The position numbers were made by a program, and so were the translations under genes. This document shows positions 1-38,208 of a stretch of DNA of 64,000 nucleotides, piece after piece. The DNA comes from a virus (lineage: Duplodnaviria; Caudoviricetes): IMG/VR virus record IMGVR_UViG_3300026274_000001. The stretch is one strand, 5' to 3'. Position 1 is the stretch's first letter; the number at the start of each line of letters is the position of its first letter. The notes beneath the pieces were generated by a model. It saw only the letters and a program-made list of their open reading frames with translations, was not told the DNA's origin and did not search any database.

Positions 1-180
1 AATGTTGGTGATATGACTAGTGTAAAGGAAACTTACTATCTGACCCTTTGCCATACTATTCACTATCGTGGTGATGGTTGGCAAATTGAACCACCTGACA
101 GCACACGATTGGAGAAAGGCTATCGAGTTACCATAATCAATGATACGCTTGCTCTACAATTTAAATTAACATGGCTATAG
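1..180 (+). CDS. FKLxW-family protein (5' partial)
   Basis: Frame 1 open from base 1: NVGD...GDGW...DTLALQFKLTWL*. Confidence 0.8.
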   Translation, partial: NVGDMTSVKETYYLTLCHTIHYRGDGWQIEPPDSTRLEKGYRVTIINDTLALQFKLTWL

Positions 181-524
181 ACATAACGTACAAAATCCTT
201 GGTGAAGTGTTTCGAGGATCGAAATTGAGTGATGACGACACTAGCATAATTAAATGGCTAGTCAAGAACGTTGGACCTACTACAGAGCAGCCAGATATGG
301 AAGTAGTTCCTACTGGTACTGAACATCGTATCTATAATTGTGGCGTGGGTTGGGTGATTGACTATCAGAATATTAGGATTGATAATCCTTCCAAACGAGA
401 AGAACATAATGTTGGACTATGTGCACCCTTGGGGCCGTGGCAACCAACTATTACTATTTCACAATACCGCTTGCATATAGCGGATGAAACATTAGCAGTA
501 CAATTTAAACTTCGGTGGATGTAA
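171..524 (+). CDS. FKLxW-family protein
   Basis: WLVKNVGP, GVGW, DETLAVQFKLRW; ATG overlaps previous Trp codon. Confidence 0.85.
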   Translation: MAIDITYKILGEVFRGSKLSDDDTSIIKWLVKNVGPTTEQPDMEVVPTGTEHRIYNCGVGWVIDYQNIRIDNPSKREEHNVGLCAPLGPWQPTITISQYRLHIADETLAVQFKLRWM

Positions 525-778
525 TGAGTGACACAAAGACGGTAGTTGAGATCACGAAATATATTGTTCAAACTGATAATCAACTAAGTGCAATTCGAGA
601 TTGGCTATTAGAAAACGTTGGGCCTTCTGAGACGGCAGGTTCGCCAGTATGTCGTGAGGGTGAAGGATGGCGTATTGAATACAAGAGTGAGATGGTTGGG
701 GTCGCCTATACCTATCACATCTTGGTTGAATTTGCAAGAGCAGACGAAGCGGTGATGTTCAAGTTAATGTGGCCATGA
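524..778 (+). CDS. FKLxW-family protein
   Basis: WLLENVGP, GEGW, DEAVMFKLMW; TAATG overlap (GTG 515 alternative). Confidence 0.85.
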   Translation: MSDTKTVVEITKYIVQTDNQLSAIRDWLLENVGPSETAGSPVCREGEGWRIEYKSEMVGVAYTYHILVEFARADEAVMFKLMWP

Positions 779-1041
779 AAAAACAAACGCGATTCAACCT
801 TACCAAAAAGATTGCAATACACGATCCGATAGTAGAAGAAATTTATCAATGGTTGAATCAGCAAGTTGGCTTAGAAACAGCGAAACCCAGATTGTCAAGT
901 GGTTATGACTATGTGGGTTTAGGATGGAAGATATACATATCTCCACTAGCTCACGGTAGCTTTAAACCCCAATACTACCTAGTGTTTGATGATTCCAATC
1001 AAGCGCTAATGTTCAAATTACGATGGTCAGCGTTAATCTAA
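775..1041 (+). CDS. FKLxW-family protein
   Basis: WLNQQVG, GLGW, NQALMFKLRW; ATGA overlap. Confidence 0.85.
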   Translation: MKKQTRFNLTKKIAIHDPIVEEIYQWLNQQVGLETAKPRLSSGYDYVGLGWKIYISPLAHGSFKPQYYLVFDDSNQALMFKLRWSALI

Positions 1042-1274
1042 ATATTCTCTCGCGAGATGTCCCCCTACATAAACGAATAGAACATCGAAACGAGATGCGT
1101 GCTTGGCTGGCCATGAATGTGGGGCCGCGCGGGGTTACACCTTATGGACAGGATCTACACAATTCTGGTGCCGGTTGGCATATACGATGCGATCATGAAG
1201 TAACACCAATCACTTGGTATGCTGATATTGACGACGAGCAATTGGCATTAATGTTCAAACTATGTTTTTCTTGA
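1023..1274 (+). CDS. FKLxW-family protein
   Basis: WLAMNVGP, GAGW, EQLALMFKLCF. Confidence 0.85.
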   Translation: MVSVNLNILSRDVPLHKRIEHRNEMRAWLAMNVGPRGVTPYGQDLHNSGAGWHIRCDHEVTPITWYADIDDEQLALMFKLCFS

Positions 1275-1510
1275 TTATGATAGATCTCACACGTCACCTT
1301 AGCTGTGTCAACTTTTCCGAACGATTGTACAACGTCGTGAGCTGGCTCATTACCAATATTGGACCTATGAAGTTTGATAAGCTTGGGCACACGCAAGGTC
1401 ACGGATGGCTACTAATTAGTAAGACTGACACCGAGTATTCATATTACGAGTACAAGTTATATTTTGATGAACCAAATGATGAACTTATGTTTAAGCTAGC
1501 CTGCTTATGA
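1262..1510 (+). CDS. FKLxW-family protein
   Basis: WLITNIGP, GHGW, DELMFKLAC; start 1262 or 1277. Confidence 0.85.
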   Translation: MFFLIMIDLTRHLSCVNFSERLYNVVSWLITNIGPMKFDKLGHTQGHGWLLISKTDTEYSYYEYKLYFDEPNDELMFKLACL

Positions 1511-1767
1511 CATCATCCGTTTATCGACTTACTGATATCAATCAAATTATCAACCCTAGTCCAATGCTTTCATGGCTTGATGCCAATGTTGGCCCCCTTA
1601 CCTTCCAATACAAAACACTGCTGGATAACGATATTGCGGCTGAGGGTATCAATTGGCGCGTAGTGAAATTGTATCAACGTATTGGCGATGGTTCATATCA
1701 ATATTCAATATTCATTGAATTTCAAAACTCCACCGATCTTATTCACTTCAAACTTGTATGGGGATAA
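1507..1767 (+). CDS. FKLxW-family protein
   Basis: WLDANVGP, GINW, DLIHFKLVW. Confidence 0.85.
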   Translation: MTSSVYRLTDINQIINPSPMLSWLDANVGPLTFQYKTLLDNDIAAEGINWRVVKLYQRIGDGSYQYSIFIEFQNSTDLIHFKLVWG

Positions 1768-2045
1768 TCGATGTCACCAATATGTTTTATGATGGACTGT
1801 ACAGCCCCAAATACGATACGATGCTTGCATGGTTGGAAGAGTGTTGTGGTCCTAGAATATTCGGAAAACGAGAGCCAAATGCAAGTGGCATAATTCCAGT
1901 GTGCCAAAGTAGCAATTGGCGGCTATTTGCTATATCATACCCCTTACGTAGAGCATACCCCGATATACAATTTCGATCATCTGGATGGGTCATTGAGTTT
2001 GATAACGATAGTGACCTTCTGATGTTTACGCTTAGATGGAAATGA
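1758..2045 (+). CDS. FKLxW-family protein
   Basis: WLEECCGP, DLLMFTLRW. Confidence 0.85.
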   Translation: MGIIDVTNMFYDGLYSPKYDTMLAWLEECCGPRIFGKREPNASGIIPVCQSSNWRLFAISYPLRRAYPDIQFRSSGWVIEFDNDSDLLMFTLRWK

Positions 2046-2052
2046 TAGACGC

Positions 2053-2394
2053 ATGTACGCAATTGATGTTAGTGATAGGACTGATGGGCGAGCCGATGCA
2101 TTTATTAAAATGCTTGATTGGTTGAACGAGGTAGTCGGCCCTCTTATATCGGAAGATCAGAGAACGGCAGAAATTAACGACAATGGTTCAAAACGTTTTT
2201 TCAAAATTGAAGGTACCGGTTGGTATTATGAGTACTGTTCAATACGTATTGGCGCCAATGATACTCGTGAATTTAAACTTCCAAAATTCTTCCATGACGC
2301 TGGTCAACGTGCAGGTGGTAGCACCCTATATACATCTAAAGTCATGTACATAGAAGACCCTATTCATGCTGTGGCATTCAAATTGACATGGTAA
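2053..2394 (+). CDS. FKLxW-family protein
   Basis: WLNEVVGP, GTGW, HAVAFKLTW. Confidence 0.85.
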   Translation: MYAIDVSDRTDGRADAFIKMLDWLNEVVGPLISEDQRTAEINDNGSKRFFKIEGTGWYYEYCSIRIGANDTREFKLPKFFHDAGQRAGGSTLYTSKVMYIEDPIHAVAFKLTW

Positions 2395-2732
2395 GAATAG
2401 ATCTACATGGCATACGCACCCAGACTAGTCTTGAATGCTGGTTCGAGTGGCTAGATCATAATATTGCGCCGCGAACGGTCACCAATCATGATCCTAACGA
2501 GTCATTACCTAGCGATGTTGTCGATCATCATTTTTACACCGGTGGTCCTGGGTGGCAATTTCATTATGTAATGACGACATTGGCACCAGCAGATTGTGAT
2601 AGAAATCTTTATGAATGTGTTTTTGCTGCAGAGGAACGCGGACCAGCAGAATTACATTATGTTGCCATGTATTTTGAATTCGAAAATGATGCAGAAGCCG
2701 TTATGTTTAAACTAATAATGAACGAGATCTGA
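2388..2732 (+). CDS. FKLxW-family protein
   Basis: WLDHNIAP, GPGW, EAVMFKLI. Confidence 0.85.
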   Translation: MVRIDLHGIRTQTSLECWFEWLDHNIAPRTVTNHDPNESLPSDVVDHHFYTGGPGWQFHYVMTTLAPADCDRNLYECVFAAEERGPAELHYVAMYFEFENDAEAVMFKLIMNEI

Positions 2733-2734
2733 CC

Positions 2735-3064
2735 ATGCATGTCTTTAATGCATTCTTGCTTGGTGACGTAACAACTTTGTTTGATTGGCTTGAAAGTAAC
2801 GTAGGTGACTTTGAATATGAAAGCCCCAAACACCCACCAGAGCCGCATTCATACTACTTTGAACGTCGTGGTGCTGGATGGCGATTTAAGTACATTACCA
2901 CCTTGAATCATATGGACATTTACCCAGACGATTTTGCACATAAGCAATGGCATGTTGTGGGTGCCGAATCGTTTGATGTTCGCCATTATGCAGTAGTAGA
3001 ACTTGATAGTGATGCCGATGCAGTTATGTTTAAACTTCGGTGGACCGGCCATGCATCTATTTAA
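2735..3064 (+). CDS. FKLxW-family protein
   Basis: WLESNVG, GAGW, DAVMFKLRW. Confidence 0.85.
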   Translation: MHVFNAFLLGDVTTLFDWLESNVGDFEYESPKHPPEPHSYYFERRGAGWRFKYITTLNHMDIYPDDFAHKQWHVVGAESFDVRHYAVVELDSDADAVMFKLRWTGHASI

Positions 3065-3317
3065 TGTAACTAAATGGGCTAGAGAGTACGATTGGTTTAC
3101 GTTCGAGAATTGGCTAAACGATAATATTGGTCCTAGAACTGCTCTCACGATGCAAAGCAAGCGCCGCTTCATGACTTATATTGGCGACGGTTGGCAGATG
3201 AAAGTCGTTTATGGTACACGACCACAACGAGAACGATGGAATATAGTACAGGCTATTGTTAAAATAGGCGAAGAGTATGATGCGGCTGCTGTGATGTTTA
3301 AACTTCAATGGATGTGA
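3051..3317 (+). CDS. FKLxW-family protein
   Basis: WLNDNIGP, GDGW, AAVMFKLQW; ATG 3051 preferred over track start 3003. Confidence 0.85.
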   Translation: MHLFNVTKWAREYDWFTFENWLNDNIGPRTALTMQSKRRFMTYIGDGWQMKVVYGTRPQRERWNIVQAIVKIGEEYDAAAVMFKLQWM

Positions 3318-3318
3318 A

Positions 3319-3576
3319 ATGGCGACGTTTGAAAACTTCATTGATGGATGGGACATTGCAAAGGCCGAGATGGTCAAGGCATGGTTGATTCAAAACATTG
3401 GTCCGCAGCTTGAAAAAGTTAAAGGATATGAATCAGTTGGTGCTGGTTGGAGTTTGACTGCATCTTCTCCTGGGTTCGTGCATAATAACCATACCCTTGA
3501 CTTCGTTGCTCCATTGTGGATACTATCTATCGAAGATGATGTATTAGCATTGCAATTCAAGCTAACCTGGCTGTAA
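3319..3576 (+). CDS. FKLxW-family protein
   Basis: WLIQNIGP, GAGW, LALQFKLTW. Confidence 0.85.
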   Translation: MATFENFIDGWDIAKAEMVKAWLIQNIGPQLEKVKGYESVGAGWSLTASSPGFVHNNHTLDFVAPLWILSIEDDVLALQFKLTWL

Positions 3577-3591
3577 TTAGTTAGAAACAAG

Positions 3592-3616
3592 AAAGCCACC
3601 CGAAGGTGGCTTTTTT
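3592..3616. terminator. Intrinsic (bidirectional) terminator
   Basis: AAAGCCACC-CGAA-GGTGGCTTTTTT between convergent ORFs. Confidence 0.8.
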
Positions 3617-3630
3617 ACAACTAGACGGGT

Positions 3631-3756
3631 TTATTGACCCTTGTATACAGCAGCTGGTGTGTTTGTGTCTACTGGAGTAGCTTTAACGTGCACCATTACG
3701 TATACCAGACCGACCACCAAAACAGCAGCAACGATCATAGCGATTTTCTTCATCAT
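3631..3756 (-). CDS. Small single-TM/signal-peptide protein, 41 aa (below ORF-track cutoff)
   Basis: MMKKIAMIVAAVLVVGLVYVMVHVKATPVDTNTPAAVYKGQ; TAAATA motif upstream on minus strand. Confidence 0.55.
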   Translation of the reverse strand: MMKKIAMIVAAVLVVGLVYVMVHVKATPVDTNTPAAVYKGQ

Positions 3757-3854
3757 GATGAAATTCTTTTAGAAGTTTGAGGGCCAAAATTAGCTCTCCT
3801 TCTATTTAAGGTGAAAATCGAGTAGGTAAAATCATTATTTTATATTGTAACCAA

Positions 3855-4130
3855 ATGGCAACAATTGACATATCTGAGTTGGCGACATCAGATATACATA
3901 AGTACTACGATTTGCTAGATTGGCTTGAAACTGAAGTAGGTCAGCATGTAAAGAAGGGTAACAACCATGCTATTTGTATTTTTGAATCAAAAGACTATTC
4001 GATTCAAAGATCATTTGGTATTGGCTGGCATCTTGATTACATCGTTAACGAGGATATGACCCATCGTGTCCTAACGGTGTATGACGAATTGAAAGCATTG
4101 ATGGTTAAATTGATTTTTTGCGGCGCATGA
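3855..4130 (+). CDS. FKLxW-family protein
   Basis: WLETEVG, GIGW, KALMVKLIF. Confidence 0.8.
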   Translation: MATIDISELATSDIHKYYDLLDWLETEVGQHVKKGNNHAICIFESKDYSIQRSFGIGWHLDYIVNEDMTHRVLTVYDELKALMVKLIFCGA

Positions 4131-4414
4131 CTACTACTTTACCTATAAAGATAACAAATTCGATAGCATTAATTCCGTTCACTATGCATTGTGATAGGAA
4201 TAATCCTAATCGAGTAAACAAGTTTGGAAGAGAATTGCTTGAGGGTGGTTGGACTATTGTGCCGGCCCTTCGACACAATTTTCTGGTGTTAACTGATTGG
4301 TGTGCCGCCAATTTTGATCATGCTGACTTTGGTTACAATCTAGTAGTGCGAGCGTTCATCTTCAAGCATATAGCCGAGGCAGTCCAGTTCAAGCTTGCTT
4401 GCTTGGGGTCTTAG
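4127..4414 (+). CDS. FKLxW-family protein
   Basis: WCAANF...FIFKHIAEAVQFKLAC. Confidence 0.8.
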   Translation: MTTTLPIKITNSIALIPFTMHCDRNNPNRVNKFGRELLEGGWTIVPALRHNFLVLTDWCAANFDHADFGYNLVVRAFIFKHIAEAVQFKLACLGS

Positions 4415-4423
4415 TGCTATCAT

Positions 4424-4693
4424 ATGAGCATGGCACACCAAATAGATAATTTCATGAGTGACTGGCTAACTGATTTCATTACAAATCAGGGTGGAGTTCC
4501 AATTCATGCGGATATGGTTGAGGCTGGTTGGGTATCAGTTGAAGTTGCTGGTGGTATTCGATGTATTGAAGCAGAGGTACTTGCGGTTAGATTGTTTGGA
4601 ACTACTGGATTCATAATGTGTCGTATGACTCGACATTTTTGGTTTGATACTGATGCCGACGCATTGATGTTCACCTTAGCTTTTGGAAAGTAA
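4424..4693 (+). CDS. FKLxW-family protein
   Basis: FWFDTDADALMFTLAF. Confidence 0.8.
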   Translation: MSMAHQIDNFMSDWLTDFITNQGGVPIHADMVEAGWVSVEVAGGIRCIEAEVLAVRLFGTTGFIMCRMTRHFWFDTDADALMFTLAFGK

Positions 4694-4694
4694 C

Positions 4695-4934
4695 ATGACG
4701 GTTTCGATTACCGATTACTATTTGAGCAACGTAGGTGATCCGACTAAGGTGAGCACTGCTGGACTTAACGCGGCGGGCTATTCTTACTGTAAGCTTCCAC
4801 GTGATTTTGACTTTAGGCGCGCCTATGTGACTGCGCTGAATCTAGTTGGTAGTAAGAACTTTCTTACCATGGATGCAAATATGTTCTGGTTTGACACCGC
4901 AGCCCTTGCGGTTCAATTCAGGTTGATGCTGTGA
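4695..4934 (+). CDS. FKLxW-family protein
   Basis: FWFDTAALAVQFRLM; close paralog of 4424..4693. Confidence 0.8.
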   Translation: MTVSITDYYLSNVGDPTKVSTAGLNAAGYSYCKLPRDFDFRRAYVTALNLVGSKNFLTMDANMFWFDTAALAVQFRLML

Positions 4935-4953
4935 TGCACAGAAAAGACCAATT

Positions 4954-5256
4954 ATGTTTGTAGAACCAGCTATGCTGTGGGGACTCAGGAATATCGTCTT
5001 GAATGATTCAATTACTGAACAACGAGAACATTGGATCCAAGAGGCTGAGCGACATGGATATTTTCTGTGGGTGAATGAGTTTCCCGGCACTAGACTCGAT
5101 TATCAACGTCTTCAGTTGACGTATGATGTCCTGATTCAGATGTTTGACTCCGATCAATACCTAGTCGAAGTTAGAGATGACATGCAGTACGTATTATTTG
5201 ATTCAGCATCAAATGCGATCTTATTTCGCTTCGAGATGGCGGAGCAAACGGCGTAA
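4954..5256 (+). CDS. FKLxW-family protein (divergent)
   Basis: LFDSASNAILFRFEM. Confidence 0.7.
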   Translation: MFVEPAMLWGLRNIVLNDSITEQREHWIQEAERHGYFLWVNEFPGTRLDYQRLQLTYDVLIQMFDSDQYLVEVRDDMQYVLFDSASNAILFRFEMAEQTA

Positions 5257-5316
5257 CGGCAGTGTACAAAAGTGATCTCACGCGTGCTAAACTAGGCTGT
5301 ACGATATGAGGAACAT

Positions 5317-5514
5317 ATGAGCAAAGAACAGAGTAAAGCTGCCATTGTAGAAAGTTATGCAGAGCGAGGCGTGTTCACTGTAGCAAGACAGTGGATTATG
5401 CAAAGGGAATGCACATATAACGGAATAACAATAAGGGATTTCCTTAACGACAAGCTAGATATACACAGTTCTGTCGTTGAAATTAATGGTGAATTTTTTG
5501 CAACAGACGATTAA
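5317..5514 (+). CDS. Hypothetical protein
   Basis: GAGG RBS, 65 aa; no family motif. Confidence 0.6.
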   Translation: MSKEQSKAAIVESYAERGVFTVARQWIMQRECTYNGITIRDFLNDKLDIHSSVVEINGEFFATDD

Positions 5515-5779
5515 ACAGCCAGAAAATCTGTATTCTTGGATGCAAGAAATGGTCGAACGCAAGCCAGCTTCATTATCAGTAGAAGCTCAAGCCGTTGGTT
5601 TGTCCATTGTGGAAATTCCGATAGAACAAGTTGTGGATAAGTGGACGGCAATATACAACTGGTGTTGTGAACACGGCGTCCCTCAACAAGATTTCCAAAT
5701 GTATTGGCATGAACGAATCTTAACCGGATTTTTCAAGTCCGTACAGTTGGCACTCATGTACAAGTTGCGATGGGGATGA
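5477..5779 (+). CDS. FKLxW-family protein
   Basis: NWCCEHG...FFKSVQLALMYKLRW. Confidence 0.8.
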   Translation: MKLMVNFLQQTIKQPENLYSWMQEMVERKPASLSVEAQAVGLSIVEIPIEQVVDKWTAIYNWCCEHGVPQQDFQMYWHERILTGFFKSVQLALMYKLRWG

Positions 5780-5780
5780 T

Positions 5781-6041
5781 ATGAACGTTCGAGAGTACTT
5801 TAGGACTGAAGTGTATAGTGTCAGTGAAAGTAATAAAGAACGAAAGCGATTGATGGAAAATGCGGGGTTTGTTCAATTACCGTGCCCGCAAAAGGTTAGA
5901 GTATCAAGCATCGCCAAATGGTGCGACGAAGTAATAGGACATGCGAATTTTGTTATTTGTCAGAACCTAATATTCTTCCAAGATGTCGATTGCGCCTTAA
6001 AATATAAAATCATGTTTGAACTCAATAGTAATTTGCAATAA
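5781..6041 (+). CDS. FKLxW-family protein
   Basis: KWCDEVIG...FFQDVDCALKYKIMF. Confidence 0.8.
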   Translation: MNVREYFRTEVYSVSESNKERKRLMENAGFVQLPCPQKVRVSSIAKWCDEVIGHANFVICQNLIFFQDVDCALKYKIMFELNSNLQ

Positions 6042-6292
6042 TGACGTTAACTGAATTTTGCGTTCGACAAGGTCCATCCAAAGCAGGAAAAATGGTGTTG
6101 CCTGATTTGCAAGTTCAATTTCCAATTGAAATTCAGATACCACCAGCATTGCATAGCGAAGCTGTATATGAGGCCGCAGCAGCTTGGGCAGATAATGCGT
6201 TCGGCAGTACATGCTTTGTTGAAGTAGCGTACCGGTTCTTCTTTACGACTGATAGTAACGCAATGCAGTTCAAACTTGCTTGGTGTTTATGA
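6041..6292 (+). CDS. FKLxW-family protein
   Basis: WADNAFG...FFFTTDSNAMQFKLAW. Confidence 0.85.
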   Translation: MTLTEFCVRQGPSKAGKMVLPDLQVQFPIEIQIPPALHSEAVYEAAAAWADNAFGSTCFVEVAYRFFFTTDSNAMQFKLAWCL

Positions 6293-6531
6293 TGTATATA
6301 AGTGACGTCATGAAGATCAGTGATGGCAGTAATCATTTCGAATTCACGCTGCAACATTACAAATGGATGATTGACCTCAATAATCGTCCTGATCTCAGTA
6401 TGGATCATTTCCGTGATGCAGATCAATGGTGTGTCACAAATCTCCCAGACGATGATTTTGTAATTGCCCCACGCAAATTCTTCTTCCGTTATCTAACGGA
6501 TGCCACACTCTTCCGGTTAATATTCAGTTAG
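6289..6531 (+). CDS. FKLxW-family protein
   Basis: QWCVTNL...FFFRYLTDATLFRLIF. Confidence 0.8.
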   Translation: MMYISDVMKISDGSNHFEFTLQHYKWMIDLNNRPDLSMDHFRDADQWCVTNLPDDDFVIAPRKFFFRYLTDATLFRLIFS

Positions 6532-6593
6532 GCAAATTGTTCTGAATACCAAGTTGTTGTAGACTTGCCATATGCAATGTGGCAAGGAGACCT

Positions 6594-6866
6594 ATGACGA
6601 CACGCTTTTACCTTGATGTAGACTACAATGAAGCATTAGAAATTGAACGATGGCTAAATGTGAATATTGGCCCTCAAGTAAAAGAAGTCATCCCCAAGAA
6701 AAATATCAAAATAATGAATTGGGAATCAAGGTTTCAATTTAGTGCAGACTGGGAAACTAGACAATTGATGGTAGAAATACTTGATGACCGCGATGCGGTC
6801 GTATTCAAGTTGACTTGGACCGAACAGATTCTACGAAACAAAACGGTAAAGTTAGATTGGAAATGA
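6594..6866 (+). CDS. FKLxW-family protein
   Basis: AAGGAG RBS; WLNVNIGP, DRDAVVFKLTW. Confidence 0.85.
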   Translation: MTTRFYLDVDYNEALEIERWLNVNIGPQVKEVIPKKNIKIMNWESRFQFSADWETRQLMVEILDDRDAVVFKLTWTEQILRNKTVKLDWK

Positions 6867-7144
6867 ATAGAACAACAATAAATGACATTTCGTTCACAAG
6901 TAAACAATACGATAAAATTCGTATGTGGCTTCGTGATCATATCAGTCCACAAGATCTAGATATTCACCTAGAAGAACGATGGGATAGTTTTGGTCCAGCT
7001 TTTGATAATTCGGTGGTATTTGGTGGCATTGGCTGGCGACTTTATATATCAATCGATACCAATCACAAGACAGGAACTGCTACCGTTGATATCGAGGACG
7101 ACACTATGGCAGTAATGTTTGCCCTGATGGCTAGGGATTTGTGA
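6863..7144 (+). CDS. FKLxW-family protein
   Basis: WLRDHISP, GIGW, DTMAVMFALM. Confidence 0.8.
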   Translation: MNRTTINDISFTSKQYDKIRMWLRDHISPQDLDIHLEERWDSFGPAFDNSVVFGGIGWRLYISIDTNHKTGTATVDIEDDTMAVMFALMARDL

Positions 7145-7413
7145 TGGCGCATTTCACAGTAGTAAAAGATATGCTGGCTATCGATATTGTTGACTATCGC
7201 CGTAAAGTCTTAGAATGGCTAGCTGCTCGTGCAGGTAGTTATCTGAAACATGAGAATCAAGAGTTATTCAGTGAAACTTATACTGCTGACACCTGGTCTG
7301 TAGAAGTGCTTTCATTCCTTGGTAAGTTTCATAATTGGCGTATGGAATATGAAATTGAAATCGCCGATGATATCGTGGCTGTTGAGTTTGCACTGATAAA
7401 AGATTCGCTGTAA
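7141..7413 (+). CDS. FKLxW-family protein
   Basis: WLAARAG...DDIVAVEFALI. Confidence 0.75.
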   Translation: MMAHFTVVKDMLAIDIVDYRRKVLEWLAARAGSYLKHENQELFSETYTADTWSVEVLSFLGKFHNWRMEYEIEIADDIVAVEFALIKDSL

Positions 7414-7490
7414 CAAATTGGTAAAACATCTTTAGTAGTTGCCAGTCTTTGTTTATAATTGCTTCTGGCATTTAGAACTGGCGCCCATCG

Positions 7491-7757
7491 ATGAGTATAA
7501 TAAAAACACGCTTTACCGCAATCGAGCAGCGGAACGAAGCTTTCACATGGTTACGTCAGAAAGAAATTCATTACGCCGTCCATTCTATAAATTCTCAGAG
7601 AACACATTTGGCTCCCCATGCGGATGCCTACTTCACTATAAGTGATAAACTGGTTGCTCTGGAGTTCATGCTTAGATTCGACGGCGTTTTGGTGCCGGAA
7701 GATGAATACAACCACATATTGGCCGTCTTTCACGCCGGCGGCCTTATTTCACGCTAA
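7491..7757 (+). CDS. FKLxW-family protein
   Basis: WLRQKEI...DKLVALEFMLRF. Confidence 0.75.
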   Translation: MSIIKTRFTAIEQRNEAFTWLRQKEIHYAVHSINSQRTHLAPHADAYFTISDKLVALEFMLRFDGVLVPEDEYNHILAVFHAGGLISR

Positions 7758-7770
7758 AACTGGAGCTTAT

Positions 7771-8055
7771 ATGATTTATGAACGACAAGCTTTTCTTAGG
7801 AACTTTTCAGATGTATCGAAGGATATCTTATTGATTCCCGAGTATGATCCAGCTTTTGGCACTCCATGTAAGTGTCAATTTTTTACAAATAGATCCCCAT
7901 TAGAATGGGATGAACCTGGATTCAAGAGTCAATTCTGGGCTTGGGTGGATGCCAATATGCGCGGTGAAGTTCGAGTATTTTCTAGTGGTGACGAAGCCGA
8001 ATGGATTGGGTTCACCAATTACAAAGACGCTTTCGAATTTGTTTTATCGTGGTAA
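7771..8055 (+). CDS. FKLxW-family protein
   Basis: GGAG RBS; WVDANMRG...GFTNYKDAFEFVLSW. Confidence 0.75.
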   Translation: MIYERQAFLRNFSDVSKDILLIPEYDPAFGTPCKCQFFTNRSPLEWDEPGFKSQFWAWVDANMRGEVRVFSSGDEAEWIGFTNYKDAFEFVLSW

Positions 8056-8321
8056 CAAACAAGTTTCGTATTACTCATTTGGTAAAAGATCGTACCTTAC
8101 CAACAACCTCTATCATAAACGGTTGTGTGTACGTTAACCTGATGTCGACTGATGCTCAAATACTAGCCATTCAAGAATGGGTAGACGACAACGTTGAATA
8201 CGATAATATTACGGTGACGACTGATACTATCTATTCCACGACTGGTGGATGGATACAAAATTACTATGTGGAGTTTGACAATGATGTCGATGCTCTTATG
8301 TTTAAACTGAAATGGCTCTAA
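8049..8321 (+). CDS. FKLxW-family protein
   Basis: EWVDDNV...EFDNDVDALMFKLKW; GTG overlapping previous Trp codon. Confidence 0.8.
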   Translation: MVTNKFRITHLVKDRTLPTTSIINGCVYVNLMSTDAQILAIQEWVDDNVEYDNITVTTDTIYSTTGGWIQNYYVEFDNDVDALMFKLKWL

Positions 8322-8602
8322 AATTAAAATACGAATTCGAGTCAAATTCGTGGCATCGATATCCACATTTAGTTTCGTGGAGAGAAGCAGACTCCAAACC
8401 CAAACTAACTGATCCGAATGAAAATCTAGTGGGTGAAATGGCGGCATTCTTGCGCCATTCAAATATCGACCATAGTCGATTGATGTTGAATGAATACAAT
8501 ATTCATACTTACAAAATGCCATATAAGATTATGTCAGGTTTTCGTTTCTTAAATGAAAACGAAGCTATGATATTTTGGTTGAAATACCAAGGTATTGAAT
8601 AA
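8312..8602 (+). CDS. FKLxW-family protein
   Basis: GFRFLNENEAMIFWLKY. Confidence 0.8.
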   Translation: MALKLKYEFESNSWHRYPHLVSWREADSKPKLTDPNENLVGEMAAFLRHSNIDHSRLMLNEYNIHTYKMPYKIMSGFRFLNENEAMIFWLKYQGIE

Positions 8603-8904
8603 TGCCATTAGTACTCAGACATCTTAAAGAATGGCACCCAGAAGATCCATTTCCTTATCGAGTATATTGGGAAAAAAAGGATGAACGATTCCCATATGGT
8701 AATAGACCGCATACCATGTTATTAAATGAAATGGAAAATTTCATTAGGGATCAAGAATGGAAATTGGAATCTTATTGGGAATCAAAATCGAATGACTATT
8801 ATAAAAGTTGGAATACAACATTCCATAGTGGCTTTAGATTTAAATGTCAGGAAGATTCTATGTTGTTTTGGCTCCGATTCAATGGAGATGCAAACGACAA
8901 ATGA
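8602..8904 (+). CDS. FKLxW-family protein
   Basis: GFRFKCQEDSMLFWLRF; close paralog of 8312..8602. Confidence 0.8.
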   Translation: MPLVLRHLKEWHPEDPFPYRVYWEKKDERFPYGNRPHTMLLNEMENFIRDQEWKLESYWESKSNDYYKSWNTTFHSGFRFKCQEDSMLFWLRFNGDANDK

Positions 8905-9167
8905 TTGTACATAATGAACCACATTGGCATCACTCTCACAAATGGTGGGTGACCTGGAACAATCATAGTTCACATGGAACGCAACTAATTGCGTGCGCTC
9001 AGCTTTCTCTTAGTGTCGATTTTAGAGAATGGCTTGAAGCAGCGAAAATTAACTTTGTTGTAGATAATAACAAGCAAGGCAGAGCTGGATATGGTTTTAA
9101 AACTAGAGAAGATGCCTTACTCTTTTATCTGCGTTGGCAAGATGATGCCTTGGGTGTATTCTATTGA
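8901..9167 (+). CDS. FKLxW-family protein
   Basis: GFKTREDALLFYLRW. Confidence 0.8.
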   Translation: MIVHNEPHWHHSHKWWVTWNNHSSHGTQLIACAQLSLSVDFREWLEAAKINFVVDNNKQGRAGYGFKTREDALLFYLRWQDDALGVFY

Positions 9168-9406
9168 ACATAACGTATGATACCAACATCCCAGAATTCA
9201 ATTGGTGGGTAATTTGGCCTAACACTCATGCGTATTATGAGCAATACGAGTTCAATCGTAAAGTAAGAGCATGGGCCGAAGAACGTGAAATGCCATTTAG
9301 AGGGCGAAGCATTTACCATCTTGATACCACTAAGCGATACTTTGGATTCAAGACTGAATATGATGCATTAACTTTTATTTTGGTATGGTCGAGTGATTTG
9401 ATATGA
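9164..9406 (+). CDS. FKLxW-family protein
   Basis: GFKTEYDALTFILVW. Confidence 0.8.
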   Translation: MNITYDTNIPEFNWWVIWPNTHAYYEQYEFNRKVRAWAEEREMPFRGRSIYHLDTTKRYFGFKTEYDALTFILVWSSDLI

Positions 9407-9687
9407 GTTTAGAACTAGTAGAAACCCCCAACGAAGAATATTGGAAAGCTCGAGTATATTGGACACCTACGAAATATGATAGCTTCATGGCTGATAATGC
9501 CTATTCTACGTATTTGGCTAATCAAATACTTCTTCGAATGGAAGTGATTGATTGGTGTAAAGAACAAGAAGGCGATTCTATGATGTTACCAACCCTATGT
9601 GGTAATTCTGGCGTAGCGTTCACGAACATTGCTGATGCCACAGCATTTGCTTTGGTATGGTCAGCTAGAATATCAGAGACGGCGTAA
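9403..9687 (+). CDS. FKLxW-family protein
   Basis: DWCKEQ...AFTNIADATAFALVW. Confidence 0.8.
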   Translation: MSLELVETPNEEYWKARVYWTPTKYDSFMADNAYSTYLANQILLRMEVIDWCKEQEGDSMMLPTLCGNSGVAFTNIADATAFALVWSARISETA

Positions 9688-9770
9688 TAGCAGCAAAATT
9701 TACACCAGGTATTTGTTAAATTGGCAACATGCAGTAGAATATATTTCCACAAAAACAAAAAGAGACACAA

Positions 9771-9941
9771 ATGACGCAAGCATTAGCAGCAACTTTTTTC
9801 GATGAAATCTCCGGCGAATTGATGGTTGATGTGCCACAAGAGATCATGGACGAAGTGGGTATCACACCTGGTGATGTGATTGTTTGGAACATCGACGAAG
9901 ACGGTCGAGTTACTATTACGAAAAAGACCGAAGAAGAATAA
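9771..9941 (+). CDS. AbrB/MazE/SpoVT-like swapped-hairpin protein, 56 aa (below track cutoff)
   Basis: GELMVDVPQEIMDEVGITPGDVIVWNIDEDGRVTITK matches the AbrB pattern. Confidence 0.65.
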   Translation: MTQALAATFFDEISGELMVDVPQEIMDEVGITPGDVIVWNIDEDGRVTITKKTEEE

Positions 9942-9986
9942 AGTATGATGTTACCATATGAAATTATGGTAACCGGGGAGAACTGA

Positions 9987-10343: not shown

Positions 10344-10372
10344 TTGACTAGCCGGTTGCCATTTAGTATATT
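10344..10372 (+). promoter_or_regulatory. sigma70-like promoter with TTGCCA box
   Basis: TTGACT-17nt-TATATT; TTGCCA in spacer, TGGCA twice downstream. Confidence 0.65.
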
Positions 10373-10402
10373 GGCATACTGGCAATTAGGGGAGGAGACA
10401 CC

Positions 10403-10594
10403 GTGGACCAAATTCTCGTAACGTGTGAACAGACGAAGAAGTCTCTCAAGGCGGACGTGCTTAGTAGTGGCAAGAACACTATGAAAGTGGCGATCGTGGG
10501 ATCAAACCTAGTGCTGGAGTTACACCGGCAGGGTAAAGTATTTGAAGGTCGAGCTGCCGGCCTGACCTTCGAGAGCAACGGGGATATTATTTAA
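10403..10594 (+). CDS. Hypothetical protein
   Basis: GGAGGAG RBS, GTG start, 63 aa. Confidence 0.7.
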   Translation: MDQILVTCEQTKKSLKADVLSSGKNTMKVAIVGSNLVLELHRQGKVFEGRAAGLTFESNGDII

Positions 10595-10766: not shown

Positions 10767-11282
10767 ATGCAGAAACATGTTTTTTCAGATGGCGATGGGG
10801 TACTTGCAGACTTCGATACAGGTTTCGAGCAACGTTTCGGCGTCGGCATGAAAGGCCTCAAAGTAGAAGTCTGGCAAGACATGATTTTGCAAACTCAAGG
10901 TCAGTTCTTTGAAGAGCTGCCACTGATGCCCCAATGGGAATATTATTGGGGTTCGATCCTTCAGTATAAGCCACTTATACTGACGGGTTGTCCAAGAATC
11001 GGCTATGACTTGGCTGCTGAAGCCAAGTATGCTTATTACATGAAGCATTGTAACCCATCATATAGAGAGCTTCACGGCGAAGATATGACGATCATTACGT
11101 GTTTGAGTAAAGAGAAGCCAATTCACATGAAGGCACCGGGTGACATCCTGATTGACGATATGGTACATAACTTGAAAAAGTGGGAAAAGGCGGGTGGTAA
11201 AACCATCTACTTTAAGACTGCCAAACAAGCTATACATTTCTTCAAGCAGGCGATCGAAGAAGATCCGATCAAAGCTGCGTAA
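10767..11282 (+). CDS. HAD-superfamily 5'(3')-deoxyribonucleotidase-like protein
   Basis: DGDGVLADF motif I, ILIDD motif IV, WEKAGG. Confidence 0.8.
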   Translation: MQKHVFSDGDGVLADFDTGFEQRFGVGMKGLKVEVWQDMILQTQGQFFEELPLMPQWEYYWGSILQYKPLILTGCPRIGYDLAAEAKYAYYMKHCNPSYRELHGEDMTIITCLSKEKPIHMKAPGDILIDDMVHNLKKWEKAGGKTIYFKTAKQAIHFFKQAIEEDPIKAA

Positions 11283-11402: not shown

Positions 11403-12665
11403 ATGCAAATCATCCAAGAAGAAAAACTCGATTTCTCATCAGTGCTCATCCGTCCGGAAAGAAGTACTCTTGGTAGTCGAAAAGATGTGGTTCTCAGCCG
11501 CACATTCCAATTCAAACATACCAACGCCAAGTGGACCGGAGTGCCGATTATTGCGGCAAACATGGACACAACTGGCACTATTGAAATGTTTAAGGCATTG
11601 AGTCAACACACGATGTTGACTGCGCTACACAAGCATCACGATGCTCAGACTCTGGTCGATCATTATATGGCTGGTACAGACCCAGAAAAGGTTGTTCAAC
11701 ATTTTAATGAACAAGCCGAATGGGCGAATAAGTTTGGTGACGATGCTGATGGCAAAGCAGATCGAGAAGATGACGACGAGCGTGGTATCGAACGTCACGA
11801 ACCATATCTGCATGGGGTACAGCGCCAATTTATTCAAACATTGGCAAGTAAATTCAGCTTCTACAGTATGGGCATTACCAATACTGATATGGAGAAGTTC
11901 CGCAATCTATACACTCACCTAAGCAATCTTTGCTATAACTTTGATCCTTCTCACTCTCATGGCACAGCTCATCAGGCGCATCCTATTCGCATGGTTTGTG
12001 TTGATGTGGCAAATGGTTACACTGACACCTTCGACACGTTTATCAAACAACTGCGGAAAAACTACCCGCACTTGATTATTATGGCTGGTAATGTAGTTAC
12101 GGCCAACATGACTGAGCAATTGATCATGTCAGGTGCTGATATTGTCAAGGTTGGTATTGGTCCTGGTAGCGTGTGTACCACCCGTAAGATGACTGGCGTT
12201 GGCTATCCCCAACTGTCAGCAGTTATTGAATGTGCATCCGCTGCTCACGGCGTGGGTGGTTTGGTTTGTAGCGATGGTGGATGCACGGTTCCCGGTGACG
12301 TCGCCAAAGCTTTTGGCGGAGGTGCCGACTTTGTGATGCTAGGTGGTATGTTGGCAGGTACGACCGAAGCTGCAGGTGCCATAGTAACCGACGATGACGG
12401 CAATATGTTTAAAGAGTTCTATGGCATGAGTTCTGCTACTGCCATGGGGAAGTATGCTGGTGGTGTAGCGAAGTATCGTGCTAGTGAAGGAAAGACCGTA
12501 CAGATCCCCTACAAGGGTCCTGTAGACACTGTGGTGCAAGATGTATTGGGTGGATTGCGAAGCACCTGTACCTATGTGGGCGCAAGCAAGCTTAAAGAAC
12601 TAACAAAACGAACTACTTTCATTAAAGTAGCAAATCAAATTAACAATGTATTTGGCAAATCATGA
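11403..12665 (+). CDS. guaC: GMP reductase (with two insertions)
   Basis: [58 protein letters not shown]. Confidence 0.95.
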
Positions 12666-13694: not shown

Positions 13695-13864
13695 AATTTT
13701 TAGCCATAAAGAAAGCCCTATACTACAGGGCTTTCTCATTACTTGCTAATATCATCCATGGCTGCAGGTGTTGATGTCGTTAAAATATCACGCATTATAG
13801 ATGCAAACTTTGAACCAAAGTCAAACGTGCTATGAGCTTCGCCTGCTGCAATTATGACTATTGA

Positions 13865-14497
13865 TTATACTGTGATCGACTGGAATACTTGCGTGATAGC
13901 ACTGCCCGAGCTATCTTTAATAATAAAGCCTAAAGTATGGGTGCCAGAACTAAGTGTTAATGCAAAATTTGCTGGTGCACCATCCAGTACAGCGAAAGAT
14001 GTAATTGGTGTATTAATCACACTTCCATCAGTTACGTAACAAGTGTATTGTTTAGATGTGGTTGAACCAGAAACACTTATCAATGTTCCAGTATATTGGC
14101 CATTAGATAAATTGGTATTCGTAAGATACGCACCAGAGCTTGCGGTGAAAGTACTAGCAATGGAAGTTGCCGGATTATCCAGACTTAAAGTTACATTGAA
14201 CAGTTGACCAAGTGTTGGATAATAAGTATTTGGCAAAACCAATGTAACTTGACCGTCATTTACGTTGGTTTGTTGATATGTACCAACGCCATCTACGGAA
14301 AAAGTAAGAACACTAGCGTTAGTTCCAGTGTATTTTGAAAATTGTGCTGTAAAATTACCATTGAAATTCAAATATGGAACATTAATAGGTGGTGCAACTT
14401 CACCTACAATCGTAGTTAGCTTGACTACCATAGCTGCTAAGTCTTCAAGAGTAATGGATTGAGTGCTATTTGTTGGTATAACTGAAATATTAGCCAT
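13865..14497 (-). CDS. Putative virion (Ig-like) protein
   Basis: Ser/Thr/Asn-rich beta-strand pattern, LSSGTHTLGFIIKDSSG; adjacent to fibre-like gene. Confidence 0.6.
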   Translation of the reverse strand: MANISVIPTNSTQSITLEDLAAMVVKLTTIVGEVAPPINVPYLNFNGNFTAQFSKYTGTNASVLTFSVDGVGTYQQTNVNDGQVTLVLPNTYYPTLGQLFNVTLSLDNPATSIASTFTASSGAYLTNTNLSNGQYTGTLISVSGSTTSKQYTCYVTDGSVINTPITSFAVLDGAPANFALTLSSGTHTLGFIIKDSSGSAITQVFQSITV

Positions 14498-14580
14498 TTG
14501 TAATTTCCTGTATTAAATATTTTATTAATTTATGAAGGCATGGAAAGTGTTATGTTTTCCATGCCTTGTTTACTTACTAA

Positions 14581-15114
14581 TTACGTTGCTGACATCAAAC
14601 CCGCATTGATTAGCTTGGTCAACAATGCGTTGAAAGATCCTTGTGCTGATGCATCTGTCCAGCCTGAACCTTGTGACTGCAATGCTGCCATCTTAACAAC
14701 ACCTACTGTTGAAGTAGTTGCTGCTGGAGTTGCTGGAATAGCTGCGATAGCTGCTGCAACGAATGCTGTTGAAGCTGCGCCAGTTGTGCTGTTACCAAGA
14801 GTCAATGTTGGTACTGTTACTGTACCTGTGAATGTTGGTGATGCCAATGGTGCTGCACCAGTTACGTCAGCGATGGTCAGAACAACCGCACCTGAACGAC
14901 CAGCAACTGATGTAACACCAGATCCACCTGTTGGTGCTGTTGCTACGTATGCCAGTGATGCCCATGCTGTTGCGCCGTCACCAATCTTTGACTTGCCTGA
15001 GTCGGTTTCAACGCCGATTTCACCGTTTGCCAAAATTGTGTTTTCTGCTGTCCAATCTGCGGCTGTACCTGCACGACGCAGTGCTTGAACTCGATAAATG
15101 CCTGTAAGTGCCAT
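14581..15114 (-). CDS. Short tail-fibre-like virion protein (Mtd/hyaluronidase N-terminal-type motif)
   Basis: RRAGTAADWTAENTILANGEIGVETDSGKSKIGDGATAWASLAY; VTSVAGRSGAV; APLASPTFTG; GGAGA RBS. Confidence 0.75.
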   Translation of the reverse strand: MALTGIYRVQALRRAGTAADWTAENTILANGEIGVETDSGKSKIGDGATAWASLAYVATAPTGGSGVTSVAGRSGAVVLTIADVTGAAPLASPTFTGTVTVPTLTLGNSTTGAASTAFVAAAIAAIPATPAATTSTVGVVKMAALQSQGSGWTDASAQGSFNALLTKLINAGLMSAT

Positions 15115-15226
15115 TTTAAATCTCCGCATATTTGAGTAAAACCATTTTTACCCATACAATGCTTCTATTATTTACCTTTACTTAGCATATGGTAAAAAGA
15201 GGACTTTCCTCTGGTTTCAAAATACA

Positions 15227-15937
15227 ATGAAAACTAACGCATTTTTATATAAATGGACACAGCTTACCACTGGAAAATGGTATATAGGTTCAAGAACTAG
15301 AAAGGGTTGCCACCCAAATGATGGTTACTTGTGTTCTAGTAAAACAGTAAAACCGTTGATTGTATCCCATCCTGAAGAATGGAAAAGAGATATTCTGGTT
15401 GTTGGAAATCCGATTTATATTAGAGAAATAGAAACGACTTATTTGGTTAAGTTTGATGCGGCCAAGGATACTAATAGTTTTAATTTATCCAATTCTCATG
15501 GCAAATATTCTTTTACTGGACAAACTCATTCTGAAAAAACGAAATTAGCTATAAGTTTAGGTAATAAAGGAATAAAACGACCTGGTAGCGGTAATCGAAC
15601 CTCTAATAGAGGAAGTAGCGAAAATAGAGGAAATAAAAAATGTCACAAAGGCAAAAATAATCCTTGCTACGGTCGCACGGGCAAACTAAATCCGATGTTT
15701 AATAAAAAACATCCACCAGAAATGAAAAAGGTGCTATCCGATATCAAAATGGGTGGCAAGAATCCAAATTCTAAACGAGTACTAACACCCTTTGGCCATT
15801 ATGACACTCTGAAAGAAGCAGCACTTGCTTACAAAGTTTCGTCAAACACAATTAAGTATTGGATTACTACTAGTAGACTTGGATTCAGTTTTATAAATTT
15901 AGAAAAGAATAAAGAAGAACAGAGAAATGACAGATAA
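15227..15937 (+). CDS. Free-standing GIY-YIG homing endonuclease (Seg-like)
   Basis: FLYKW...WYIGSR, YLCSS; NUMOD3-like HSEKTKLAIS/GKNNP/NPMF repeats; C-terminal HTH. Confidence 0.85.
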   Translation: MKTNAFLYKWTQLTTGKWYIGSRTRKGCHPNDGYLCSSKTVKPLIVSHPEEWKRDILVVGNPIYIREIETTYLVKFDAAKDTNSFNLSNSHGKYSFTGQTHSEKTKLAISLGNKGIKRPGSGNRTSNRGSSENRGNKKCHKGKNNPCYGRTGKLNPMFNKKHPPEMKKVLSDIKMGGKNPNSKRVLTPFGHYDTLKEAALAYKVSSNTIKYWITTSRLGFSFINLEKNKEEQRNDR

Positions 15938-16697
15938 TACCAAGAAAACAGGTATGACAATTACAGTATCCGATGAATTGGTTGCTGACCTGAAGACCCT
16001 GCATGGCATTGATGCCGTTACCGAAATTGTTAATTCGGTAACATCAGAGCTTGAATTGGAATTAGAACAACCAAAAGAACCAGAACGTCGTGTGTTTTCT
16101 ATCGATGTTGGTAATATGACTCCTGAACAAGCCAAGGAAGCAATCACCGCAATTCAAAACAAATATGCCGCGCTTGATAGTGCATATAACCCCATGACTA
16201 TGGGCGAAGACTACTTTTTTGCACCTGCGCCAAAGAAGAAGTTTATGTCTACTAAGACATTTAATACTGATCGCGGATTGAGCTGCTGTTTCCGTCAATG
16301 GCGTGCCACCCATTCACATTGCTCAACACTGCACGGCTATTCAATCGGTGTGAAGTTTGTATTTGAATGTGAAGAACTGGACGAACGCAACTGGGTATTC
16401 GACTTTGGTGGTCTGAAGGATATTAAGAAATGGCTTGAGCATATGTTTGACCATACATGCTGTGTTGCAGAAGACGATCCATTGTTGGAACAATTTAAGG
16501 CATTTGCAGCAACTGGCGTTATGGACTTGCGGATTGTCCCAGGTGTAGGCTGTGAACGTTTTGCCGAAATGATTTTTGATCATGTCACTAAGGTGTTAGA
16601 TGATTCCCGCGATACTATGTTGAACAAGACTGCACGACTTAAGTCAGTCGAAGTCTTCGAACATGGTGCTAATTCGGCGATCGTTGAACGCGACTAA
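15927..16697 (+). CDS. queD: QueD (6-carboxy-tetrahydropterin synthase) with N-terminal capsid- and portal-like extension
   Basis: aa ~104-256: STKTF..RGLSCCFRQWRATHSHCSTLHGY, DFGGLK, FDH, GCERFAE, VFEHGANSA; aa 1-103 see findings. Confidence 0.85.
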   Translation: MTDNTKKTGMTITVSDELVADLKTLHGIDAVTEIVNSVTSELELELEQPKEPERRVFSIDVGNMTPEQAKEAITAIQNKYAALDSAYNPMTMGEDYFFAPAPKKKFMSTKTFNTDRGLSCCFRQWRATHSHCSTLHGYSIGVKFVFECEELDERNWVFDFGGLKDIKKWLEHMFDHTCCVAEDDPLLEQFKAFAATGVMDLRIVPGVGCERFAEMIFDHVTKVLDDSRDTMLNKTARLKSVEVFEHGANSAIVERD

Positions 16698-16777: not shown

Positions 16778-17470
16778 ATGGGCTTTAGCCTTACTGCTTC
16801 ATCCGTAAACTCGGCAATGATCCGTGTTTACAACTATGTCTTTGCTGCTCTGGTTCTCACTGGTGCGGTTGCATTCGGCGTAGCAAGTCAGCCGGCGTTT
16901 CTGAAGGTGTTGATGACCGGCGCCGCACAGATCGGTCTGATCGTACTGACGTTTGTATTACTGTTCAGTATCTCGTCGGTCCGTGAGTCAGAAAACGCGG
17001 TTGCTGCGAAGGTGATGTTTGGTGCATTTGCTGTTGTATGGGGACTTTTGTTCTCTGGCATTTTCGCCGCATATACGACTGCAAGTATTTTCGCTGCTTT
17101 GTTCTCTGCTGCGGTATTATTCCTGACTATGTCCGGATACGGTTACTTCACCAAACGTGACATCACGTCGTTCGGTCAATACTTGTTTATTGGCTTGATT
17201 GCAATCATTATCGCAAGTGTCGTTAACTTGTTTGTCGGTAGCAATACTGCATCATTGGTGATTTCAGGTTTTACTATCCTGTTGTTTATCGGTATCACCG
17301 CATGGGATGCGCAAACGATTCGTGATTCTTTGATGGCAGCTGAATCGCAAGCCAATCTTGATTACGTTGTTGTCAACGGTGCGATGTCCCTGTACTTGGA
17401 CTTCTTGAACTTGTTCTTGAGTTTCCTGCGCTTTATGGGTGTTCCAGTTCCTTCGTCAAGTAACGATTGA
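16778..17470 (+). CDS. yccA: Bax inhibitor-1/YccA family membrane protein
   Basis: About 7 TM; YGYFTKRDITSFG, TAWDAQTIR, SLYLDFLNLFL; GAGGAG RBS. Confidence 0.9.
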   Translation: MGFSLTASSVNSAMIRVYNYVFAALVLTGAVAFGVASQPAFLKVLMTGAAQIGLIVLTFVLLFSISSVRESENAVAAKVMFGAFAVVWGLLFSGIFAAYTTASIFAALFSAAVLFLTMSGYGYFTKRDITSFGQYLFIGLIAIIIASVVNLFVGSNTASLVISGFTILLFIGITAWDAQTIRDSLMAAESQANLDYVVVNGAMSLYLDFLNLFLSFLRFMGVPVPSSSND

Positions 17471-38207: not shown

Positions 38208-38208
38208 T

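Follow-up and report, generated by a model that had tools for sequence, protein, structure and literature searches.

Large families of small paralogous genes have been described from jumbo phages before: Bacillus phage G encodes a zinc-ribbon family of ~35 copies (Iyer et al. 2021, PMC7824862), and phage G as well as phage 121Q contain arrays that exceed 30 genes (Hua et al. 2017, PMC5646251). The subject here is a family of small proteins encoded in a 64,000-nucleotide stretch of viral DNA (Duplodnaviria; Caudoviricetes; IMG/VR record IMGVR_UViG_3300026274_000001), which is called the window throughout; the plus strand of its positions 1-9687 is packed with open reading frames (ORFs) of 55-137 amino acids (aa), the majority of which end in A-x-x-F-K-L-x-W. 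This family is undescribed and unnamed in the databases compared, and it is a further lineage-specific jumbo-phage expansion, among those with the highest copy numbers: 43 firm members in the 64-kb window and 78 in G001, a complete related genome, both lie above 30 copies in one phage genome. As in phages G and 121Q, dozens of copies of one small family are arranged mostly head to tail; unlike there, family and fold are different and undescribed, the copies, which in those phages are called “very similar”, are very diverged (median identity of 24%), about 78 copies per genome are distributed over about 20 loci (in G001), and a conserved orthologue can be shown for the individual copy. We infer, tentatively and at somewhat less than even confidence, that they form a long-standing set of small acidic binders, each copy maintained in its own right, which act inside the cell in host takeover or counter-defence.

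Membership was defined with a profile that was seeded with 13 ORFs of the array and iterated over all 466 ORFs of the window (cut-off E<1e-3), which collected 38 ORFs. An extended profile, consisting of the window profile, the orthologues of related contigs and 150 database relatives, converged at 43 window ORFs, termed firm members here (26 in 1-9687, 7 in 18081-22709, 9 in 37352-40348 and 1 in 53335-55561). Among 2802 reversed or shuffled ORFs there were 0 profile matches, even at E<10. A looser cut adds three ORFs of the first array (4683-4934, 5781-6041, 8844-9167), and ~10 further window ORFs have the C-terminal helix only, four of them in the first array (4954-5256, 7642-8055, 8312-8602, 8602-8904). 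When the borderline ORFs were compared with the family alignment by hhalign, the last helix alone was aligned, with low probability; a model of one of them (8602-8904) reached a predicted local distance difference test (pLDDT) value of 71 with the element order β-β-α-β-β-α, and a fold search with this model found no clear match. The initial annotation, made from the letters and their ORFs, had described small head-to-tail ORFs united by an N-terminal and a C-terminal motif, and the ORF translations and the profile with its 0 control matches bear this out. Its numbers were somewhat generous: the ~33 genes given for 1-9687 correspond to every ORF of the array, of which only 26 are firm, 3 weaker and 4 restricted to the C-terminal helix, and the ~57 given for the window are a mild over-count in view of 43 firm and about 10 borderline members. 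Likewise, family ORFs are present in all four of the arrays it had delimited, but the second is broken by a topoisomerase IV-A gene (20939-22300), and the fourth (53335-55561) is really a group of three paralogues of 220-261 aa that have the C-terminal module only.

The family proteins are mostly ~80-125 aa long, mostly acidic (median isoelectric point (pI) 5.1; pI <6 in 32 of the 43 copies, >8 in 4), single-domain and cytoplasmic. No fusion to another known domain was found, longer forms being tandem double domains or having N-terminal regions that cannot be assigned, and Pfam revealed no informative second domain in longer members and fused forms. An AlphaFold2 model of the product of 515-778, computed from a 36-member alignment, has a mean pLDDT of 83.5 (about 90 over the last residues) and is composed of β1 (residues 9-15), α1 (21-34), β2 (46-49), β3 (52-61), β4 (64-73) and α2 (76-85); every copy keeps this β-α-β3-α two-layer scaffold. 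A homodimer prediction for the same protein scored 0.00, which indicates nothing either way. Column conservation, computed over 266 family members, is highest in α1 (W 99%, L 75%) with its C-cap (N 55%, V/I 77%, G 78%, P 46%), in the turn between β2 and β3 (G 71%, G 54%, W 93%), in β4 (aromatic 92%, F/I 90%), after which D/N and D/E precede α2, and in α2 itself (A 89%, F 94%, K 74%, L 96%, W/F 90%). On a helical wheel the A, F, L and W of α2, together with a V/L/M position, form one broad hydrophobic arc, and the only conserved polar positions are N41, D69/D70 and K77. Because the conserved residues are mostly aromatic, aliphatic, Gly or Pro and those of α2 share one hydrophobic arc, the motifs W-L...N-V-G-P, G-x-G-W and D-x-x-A-x-x-F-K-L-x-W are read as fold core, helix caps and turns, and most of them would be buried; N41, D69/70 and K77 are then the sole candidates for a conserved functional patch. 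Variation in length and sequence is concentrated in the α1-β2 loop and the β3-β4 hairpin, both of which, judged by the strand order of the model, should lie at the same end of the domain.

These features bear directly on the function that had been proposed at the outset, namely that of an F-box-like adaptor repertoire in which the conserved motif docks to one hub and the variable loops deliver different host proteins to it. The notion of a constant scaffold with variable loops holds, since the proteins share one homologous domain whose variation is confined mainly to the α1-β2 and β3-β4 regions, and it fits an adaptor; the phage does encode ClpX (27991-29256), which could serve as such a hub, and N41, D69/70 and K77 could make a common patch. 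The constant docking surface, however, seems doubtful, as the conserved positions (W, L, V/I, G, P, G-x-G-W, aromatic, F/I, A, F, L, W) appear core-like, being mostly aromatic, aliphatic, Gly or Pro. Further, FKLxW is modelled as a helix within a compact, confidently predicted domain and not as a free tail, and the related Agrobacterium phage Atu_ph07 has a syntenic ClpX gene yet only one weak match to the family; adaptors are thus very unlikely.

Searches for a known relative gave little. The members had no match in Pfam, and PGM_PMM_IV (PF00408) and MoaD_arch (PF09189) gave zero matches to 10 members even at E<=1; PHROGs and NCBIfam matched 0 of 36 members, PADLOC returned two single chance-level matches only (E 0.006), and the profile retrieved only chance-level rows from the PDB sequences (E>=0.08). 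A tblastn search with one member against 50,697 phage records and a megablast search with the array had zero matches. By structure, the best-matching fold type is the TBP-like β-α-β(n)-α sandwich. The best solved structure is the C-terminal domain of the MoaD-related protein 1v8c (Z 7.5, root-mean-square deviation 4.0, 74 residues aligned), and phosphoglucomutase C-terminal domains are also among the best fold matches (template modelling (TM) scores of 0.58-0.62 in the atlas; Foldseek PDB E>=0.016); the 1v8c and phosphoglucomutase scores are within the range usual for generic small α/β matches. The PF00408 and PF09189 domains have the same secondary-structure order, β-α-β3-α in two layers, but they are parts of enzymes, unlike the array proteins, which are stand-alone phage proteins without sequence similarity to them. 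Better fold matches exist among uncharacterised viral clusters (TM 0.73-0.74 in the ESM Atlas; E 5e-5 and 30% identity in BFVD); these proteins of “uncultured Caudovirales phage”, 65-95 aa long, have the same fold and probably belong to the array family, but they are entered without a name, a function or an account of their genomic organisation.

The nearest named folds (the phosphoglucomutase and MoaD-related C-terminal domains, and ACT/RRM-like domains) would suit a set of regulators that bind small ligands or nucleic acids, that is, a TBP-like scaffold binding nucleotides, sugars, phosphates, RNA or DNA, with a different small molecule or sequence sensed or sequestered by each paralogue. 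Yet the fold scores (best Z 7.5, TM 0.58-0.62) are generic for a small α/β sandwich and there are zero sequence matches to the phosphoglucomutase and MoaD-related families; the acidity of the proteins argues against general nucleic-acid binding, and conserved polar residues that might line a pocket are limited to N, D and K. Such regulators are, in our view, quite unlikely.

The copies are related to each other only distantly. Over the match columns, paralogue identity has a median of 24% (5-95% range 15-35%, maximum 47%), the best full-length identity is about 31%, BLASTP detects only 49 of 903 paralogue pairs, and the best paralogue is the immediate neighbour in only 8 of the 43 copies; the duplications are old. 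A 327-kb metagenomic contig (L013) is collinear with positions 157-9972 of the window at 72-81% nucleotide identity. With the single exception of 8001-8321, the array ORFs (32 of 33) have reciprocal-best orthologues there, in the same order, that are 46-89% identical in amino-acid sequence. A more distant phage that is present in many samples (L014) retains 24 of the 33 in order, with 27-56% identity, whereas its genes corresponding to the flanking 10403-10594 and 10767-11282 are 79% and 88% identical; two still more distant IMG/VR genomes keep 14-17 of the 33 collinear. From the contrast between array and flanks in L014, with the gene order kept, it follows that the copies diverge several times faster than the neighbouring enzyme genes, that each is retained singly, and that gain and loss are slow.

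Large eukaryotic DNA viruses have multigene families, and poxviruses “genomic accordions”, in which many paralogues of a scaffold of the host-interaction type are clustered, and the arrays of the window had at first been likened to the accordions. Near-identical recent copies are absent, and with 32 of 33 ORFs collinear in L013 the comparison fails: unlike in poxviruses, the duplications are ancient and fixed, with little change in copy number between close relatives. The arrays are mostly fixed and syntenic among relatives (32/33, 24/33 and 14-17/33 collinear orthologues), an outcome that the initial annotation itself had set against its proposal.

Selection was estimated by the Nei-Gojobori method against L013, at a synonymous divergence (dS) of about 1.5, which is near saturation. 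The ratio of nonsynonymous to synonymous divergence (dN/dS) is 0.06-0.48 per gene and 0.145 pooled, with about 0.12 for scaffold (match-state) codons and about 0.26 for loop (insert-state) codons. Purifying selection on the scaffold is as had been anticipated; the loops, for which diversifying selection had been expected, are under purifying selection, too, so that they are less constrained yet not diversifying at the distance of L013. For the arrays of phages G and 121Q, tandem duplication has been suggested as a way in which jumbo-phage genomes grow (Hua et al. 2017, PMC5646251), and the arrays of the window might likewise be near-neutral filler, adding length until a larger capsid is full. 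That every copy is under purifying selection makes this extremely improbable: each is an intact ORF whose orthologue is retained across dS>1 with a dN/dS of 0.06-0.48, and recent duplicates are absent.

Outside the window, the window profile has at least 27 matches in Sinorhizobium phage Phosso, one weak match in Atu_ph07 (AUZ95037.1), 52 in G001, a complete IMG/VR genome of 523,836 bp with terminal repeats, and 40 in a 290-kb fragment; there are 0 in phages XacN1, SCTP-2, GAP32, Vibrio phage 2.275.O and PBECO4. With the extended profile, the ORFs of G001 contain 78 members at about 20 loci, the largest runs comprising 25, 12, 8 and 7 genes; the per-genome copy number is taken from this complete relative, not from the window's own genome. 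A search of 1.84 billion representative proteins found 436 clusters at E<=0.001; the 150 cluster matches listed are all small (61-245 aa), and two traced clusters sit in further eight-member arrays on metagenomic contigs of unassigned affiliation, one of them a 301-kb contig with the array between helicase and DnaB genes. The family is lineage-specific, belonging to Phosso-like soil jumbo phages of ~0.5 Mb with about 80 copies per genome; in a phage of half a megabase, about one in ten genes belongs to it.

That the window itself is from this group is indicated by its topoisomerase IV-A protein, which shares 59% identity with its counterpart in Phosso (469 kb) and 52% with the one in Atu_ph07 (490 kb). 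The order ClpX, large topoisomerase subunit, topoisomerase A subunit is common to the window, Phosso and Atu_ph07, and the stretch occurs in public runs from soil and peat (metagenomes) and from soil (metatranscriptomes); there are metagenome runs with 25-99% of the array's sampled words. The window is therefore from a jumbo phage of soil, uncultured and belonging to the Phosso/Atu_ph07 group. A literature search for Phosso gave no paper. The features of the arrays and their surroundings are as follows.

1-3576, plus strand: first segment of the main array, with 13 firm genes, 13-180 through 3319-3576.
3592-3616: strong GC hairpin with a T run after it (dG -17.7 kcal/mol, z -5.7).
3631-3756, minus strand: ORF for a 41-aa membrane protein with one hydrophobic helix, outside the family and convergent with the array.
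3855-9687, plus strand: second segment of the main array, with 13 firm, 3 weaker and 4 C-terminal-helix-only ORFs.
5317-5514, plus strand: unrelated 65-aa ORF within the second segment.
7440-7470, plus strand: TATAAT box within a 6-bp inverted repeat, in a 77-bp gap before gene 7491-7757.
9771-9941, plus strand: SpoVT/AbrB protein of 56 aa (MazE-type, antitoxin fold), directly 3' of the main array and outside the family.
18081-18368, 18401-18643, 18634-18927 and 18888-19553, minus strand: four firm members.
20365-20938, minus strand: two firm members, adjoining the topoisomerase IV-A gene on its downstream side.
20939-22300: topoisomerase IV-A gene.
22329-22709, minus strand: one firm member, between the genes for both topoisomerase II subunits.
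27991-29256: ClpX gene.
37352-40348, plus strand: nine firm members of a subfamily without G-x-G-W, frequently with a tail beyond the FKLxW helix.
53335-55561, plus strand: three mutual paralogues of 220-261 aa (25-26% identity).

Gene 13-180 may start to the left of the window edge, and the main array extends beyond it; 12 more members lie upstream in the sister contig L013. Between its two segments the main array is split at 3592-3756 by the hairpin, which looks like a bidirectional intrinsic terminator closing the first operon segment, and by the 41-aa ORF on the minus strand, at the position of which a gene is called in L013 as well. The SpoVT/AbrB gene that follows the main array is kept in 4 of 4 relatives with 54-89% identity, far above the array genes. 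Within the minus-strand group, the product of 18888-19553 has 221 aa with the family domain at its C-terminus, and 22706-23095, next to 22329-22709, is a borderline member. The subfamily array at 37352-40348 abuts a 502-aa gene lacking an assigned function. In the trio at 53335-55561 the last ~35 residues resemble the β-β-α end of the family, and only 54110-54895 passes the profile (E 1.3e-5).

Most junctions between array genes are stop/start overlaps of 4-19 nt in same-strand runs of 25-26 genes, which fits translational coupling within long operons. At the junctions 171, 515, 769, 1758 and 8312 a codon's last base and the TG of the conserved Trp codon that follows it together make the ATG or GTG of the next gene (NNA/NNG+TGG); the overlap there is 10 nt, so that protein motif and next start have bases in common. 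Transcription as a few long operons, in a region of replication, translation and nucleotide-metabolism genes, is partly shown. Contigs of three soil metatranscriptome runs span the main array, a hint that it is transcribed. Depth in the RNA runs is stepwise, being about five times higher between 7.2-7.4 kb and about 11.2 kb, with the contigs of higher depth beginning at 7214-7421, and the DNA run has a single flat contig across 1-13750. The RNA-run contigs continue across the terminator at 3592-3616, though contigs cannot reveal transcript ends. Adapter-tagged ends of RNA contigs were seen at 11260-11277 and 11415-11427, in two or three runs; the former could be the 3' terminus of a transcript, where gene 10767-11282 ends, and the latter a 5' terminus, where the IMPDH-like gene starts.

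The TATAAT box at 7440-7470 is, by its sequence, a candidate internal promoter, and the same design, a -10 box in the loop of a 6-7-bp inverted repeat, is seen at 10356-10385 and 48888-48920. Neither element is enriched: σ70-like sites number 38 (32.8 +/- 4.7 expected), and hairpins enclosing a -10 box number 15 on the plus strand, as compared with 5-17 in shuffled sequences. An organisation in early cassettes of the PeSL type, with a promoter and a hairpin for each gene, was considered and rejected, as most genes have no intergenic space and only the unit at 7440-7470 is a candidate.

The window encodes both T4-type topoisomerase II subunits, ClpX, an IMPDH/GMP-reductase-like enzyme and a CCA-adding enzyme, as well as a class II aminoacyl-tRNA synthetase and one tRNA. 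The neighbours of the arrays are the genes for topoisomerase II, ClpX, the IMPDH-like enzyme, the CCA-adding enzyme and the tRNA synthetase, and virion genes are not among them. This setting matters for the idea that the small proteins are virion-associated or assist assembly, as injected internal proteins or as decoration or scaffolding accessories of a very large capsid. Paralogous head-protein families occur in jumbo phages belonging to other groups, which counts in its favour. The relatives are of the “hairy” kind, and many of their virion proteins are unassigned (PMC6102473). But the arrays lie amid replication, translation and nucleotide genes rather than morphogenesis genes, and the single T4-type late promoter of the window (TATAAATA) lies away from them. 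Moreover, in Atu_ph07 112 further proteins associated with the virion were found by mass spectrometry (PMC6102473), and this phage has one weak member of the family only; a role in the virion is highly unlikely.

Some observations concern the metabolic genes beyond the main array. Two minus-strand genes lie amid them: 16778-17470 encodes a Bax1-inhibitor/YccA-type membrane protein (Pfam E 3e-45), and 14581-15129 a protein of 182 aa that combines an Mtd_N domain with a head-fibre-like end. The 830 bases of 13751-14580 are missing from a form that occurs in one DNA run and one RNA run, where 6 other letters replace them; the loss takes out a 210-aa minus-strand gene (13865-14497) without a Pfam match and is a presence/absence polymorphism within the phage population. 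In contigs of three metatranscriptome runs, 15943 is joined to 16197, skipping 253 bases, and the DNA run is without this join. The skipped bases are the 5' part of a QueD-like gene (15927-16697) and adjoin an ORF with a NUMOD3 motif (15227-15937); they may represent an intron or a strain variant, and a search for Rfam introns at this place had zero matches.

For the set of intracellular binders preferred here, the following scenario may be drawn. Each copy would bind, by its own loop surface, a different macromolecule of the host (or of the phage) inside the infected cell, and the copies together would constitute a fixed panel for host takeover or counter-defence, neither an expanding accordion nor a set of adaptors with a shared dock. 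That the copies bind different targets is plausible. In favour of the scenario count the 43 profile members which are mostly acidic and without other domains, have one-to-one orthologues and are surrounded by non-virion genes. Several points weigh against it. The burial of the motif is deduced from residue types and helical periodicity, and the Lys inside the hydrophobic arc of the last helix could, together with the N-x-G-P loop, be a small shared functional site. The fold is as close to ligand-binding domains (the C-terminal domains of phosphoglucomutase and of the MoaD-related protein) as to protein binders. With dS of ~1.5 near saturation, episodic positive selection at a few loop sites may have gone by unseen, and the contigs of the RNA libraries may contain DNA.

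A bolder version of the binder panel holds that the ~80 copies are a hard-wired library, each copy having been selected to neutralise another target within the host range of the phage, be it a defence, a toxin or a housekeeping protein of the host; this we consider unlikely. In bacteria, polymorphic toxin systems reportedly have poly-immunity loci in which immunity genes (SUKH and other Imm families) are gathered, as Zhang and colleagues are said to have described in 2011. The arrays resemble such loci in being tandem arrays of diverged small single-domain proteins, but they differ in that they have no Pfam match to Imm or SUKH families and no adjacent toxin gene, and in that they are found in a phage and not in a bacterial chromosome. 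If the library were real, no larger repertoire for polyvalent counter-defence or poly-immunity would be known from a bacterial virus, and its domain would be a natural small-protein scaffold comparable to the engineered binder scaffolds.

Each copy has remained intact and distinct over a long divergence, so that the phage evidently needs all of them. As giant paralogue arrays recur in unrelated jumbo lineages (phage G, 121Q-type phages, and the one analysed here) with different folds, they suggest a general, as yet unexplained strategy. With Phosso, which grows on Sinorhizobium meliloti and has at least 27 copies, a cultured relative is at hand in which the question can be put to the test directly. 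Should the copies turn out to bind specific targets, host-takeover or anti-defence proteins could be drawn from the family in large number, and its domain would be a compact natural binding scaffold.

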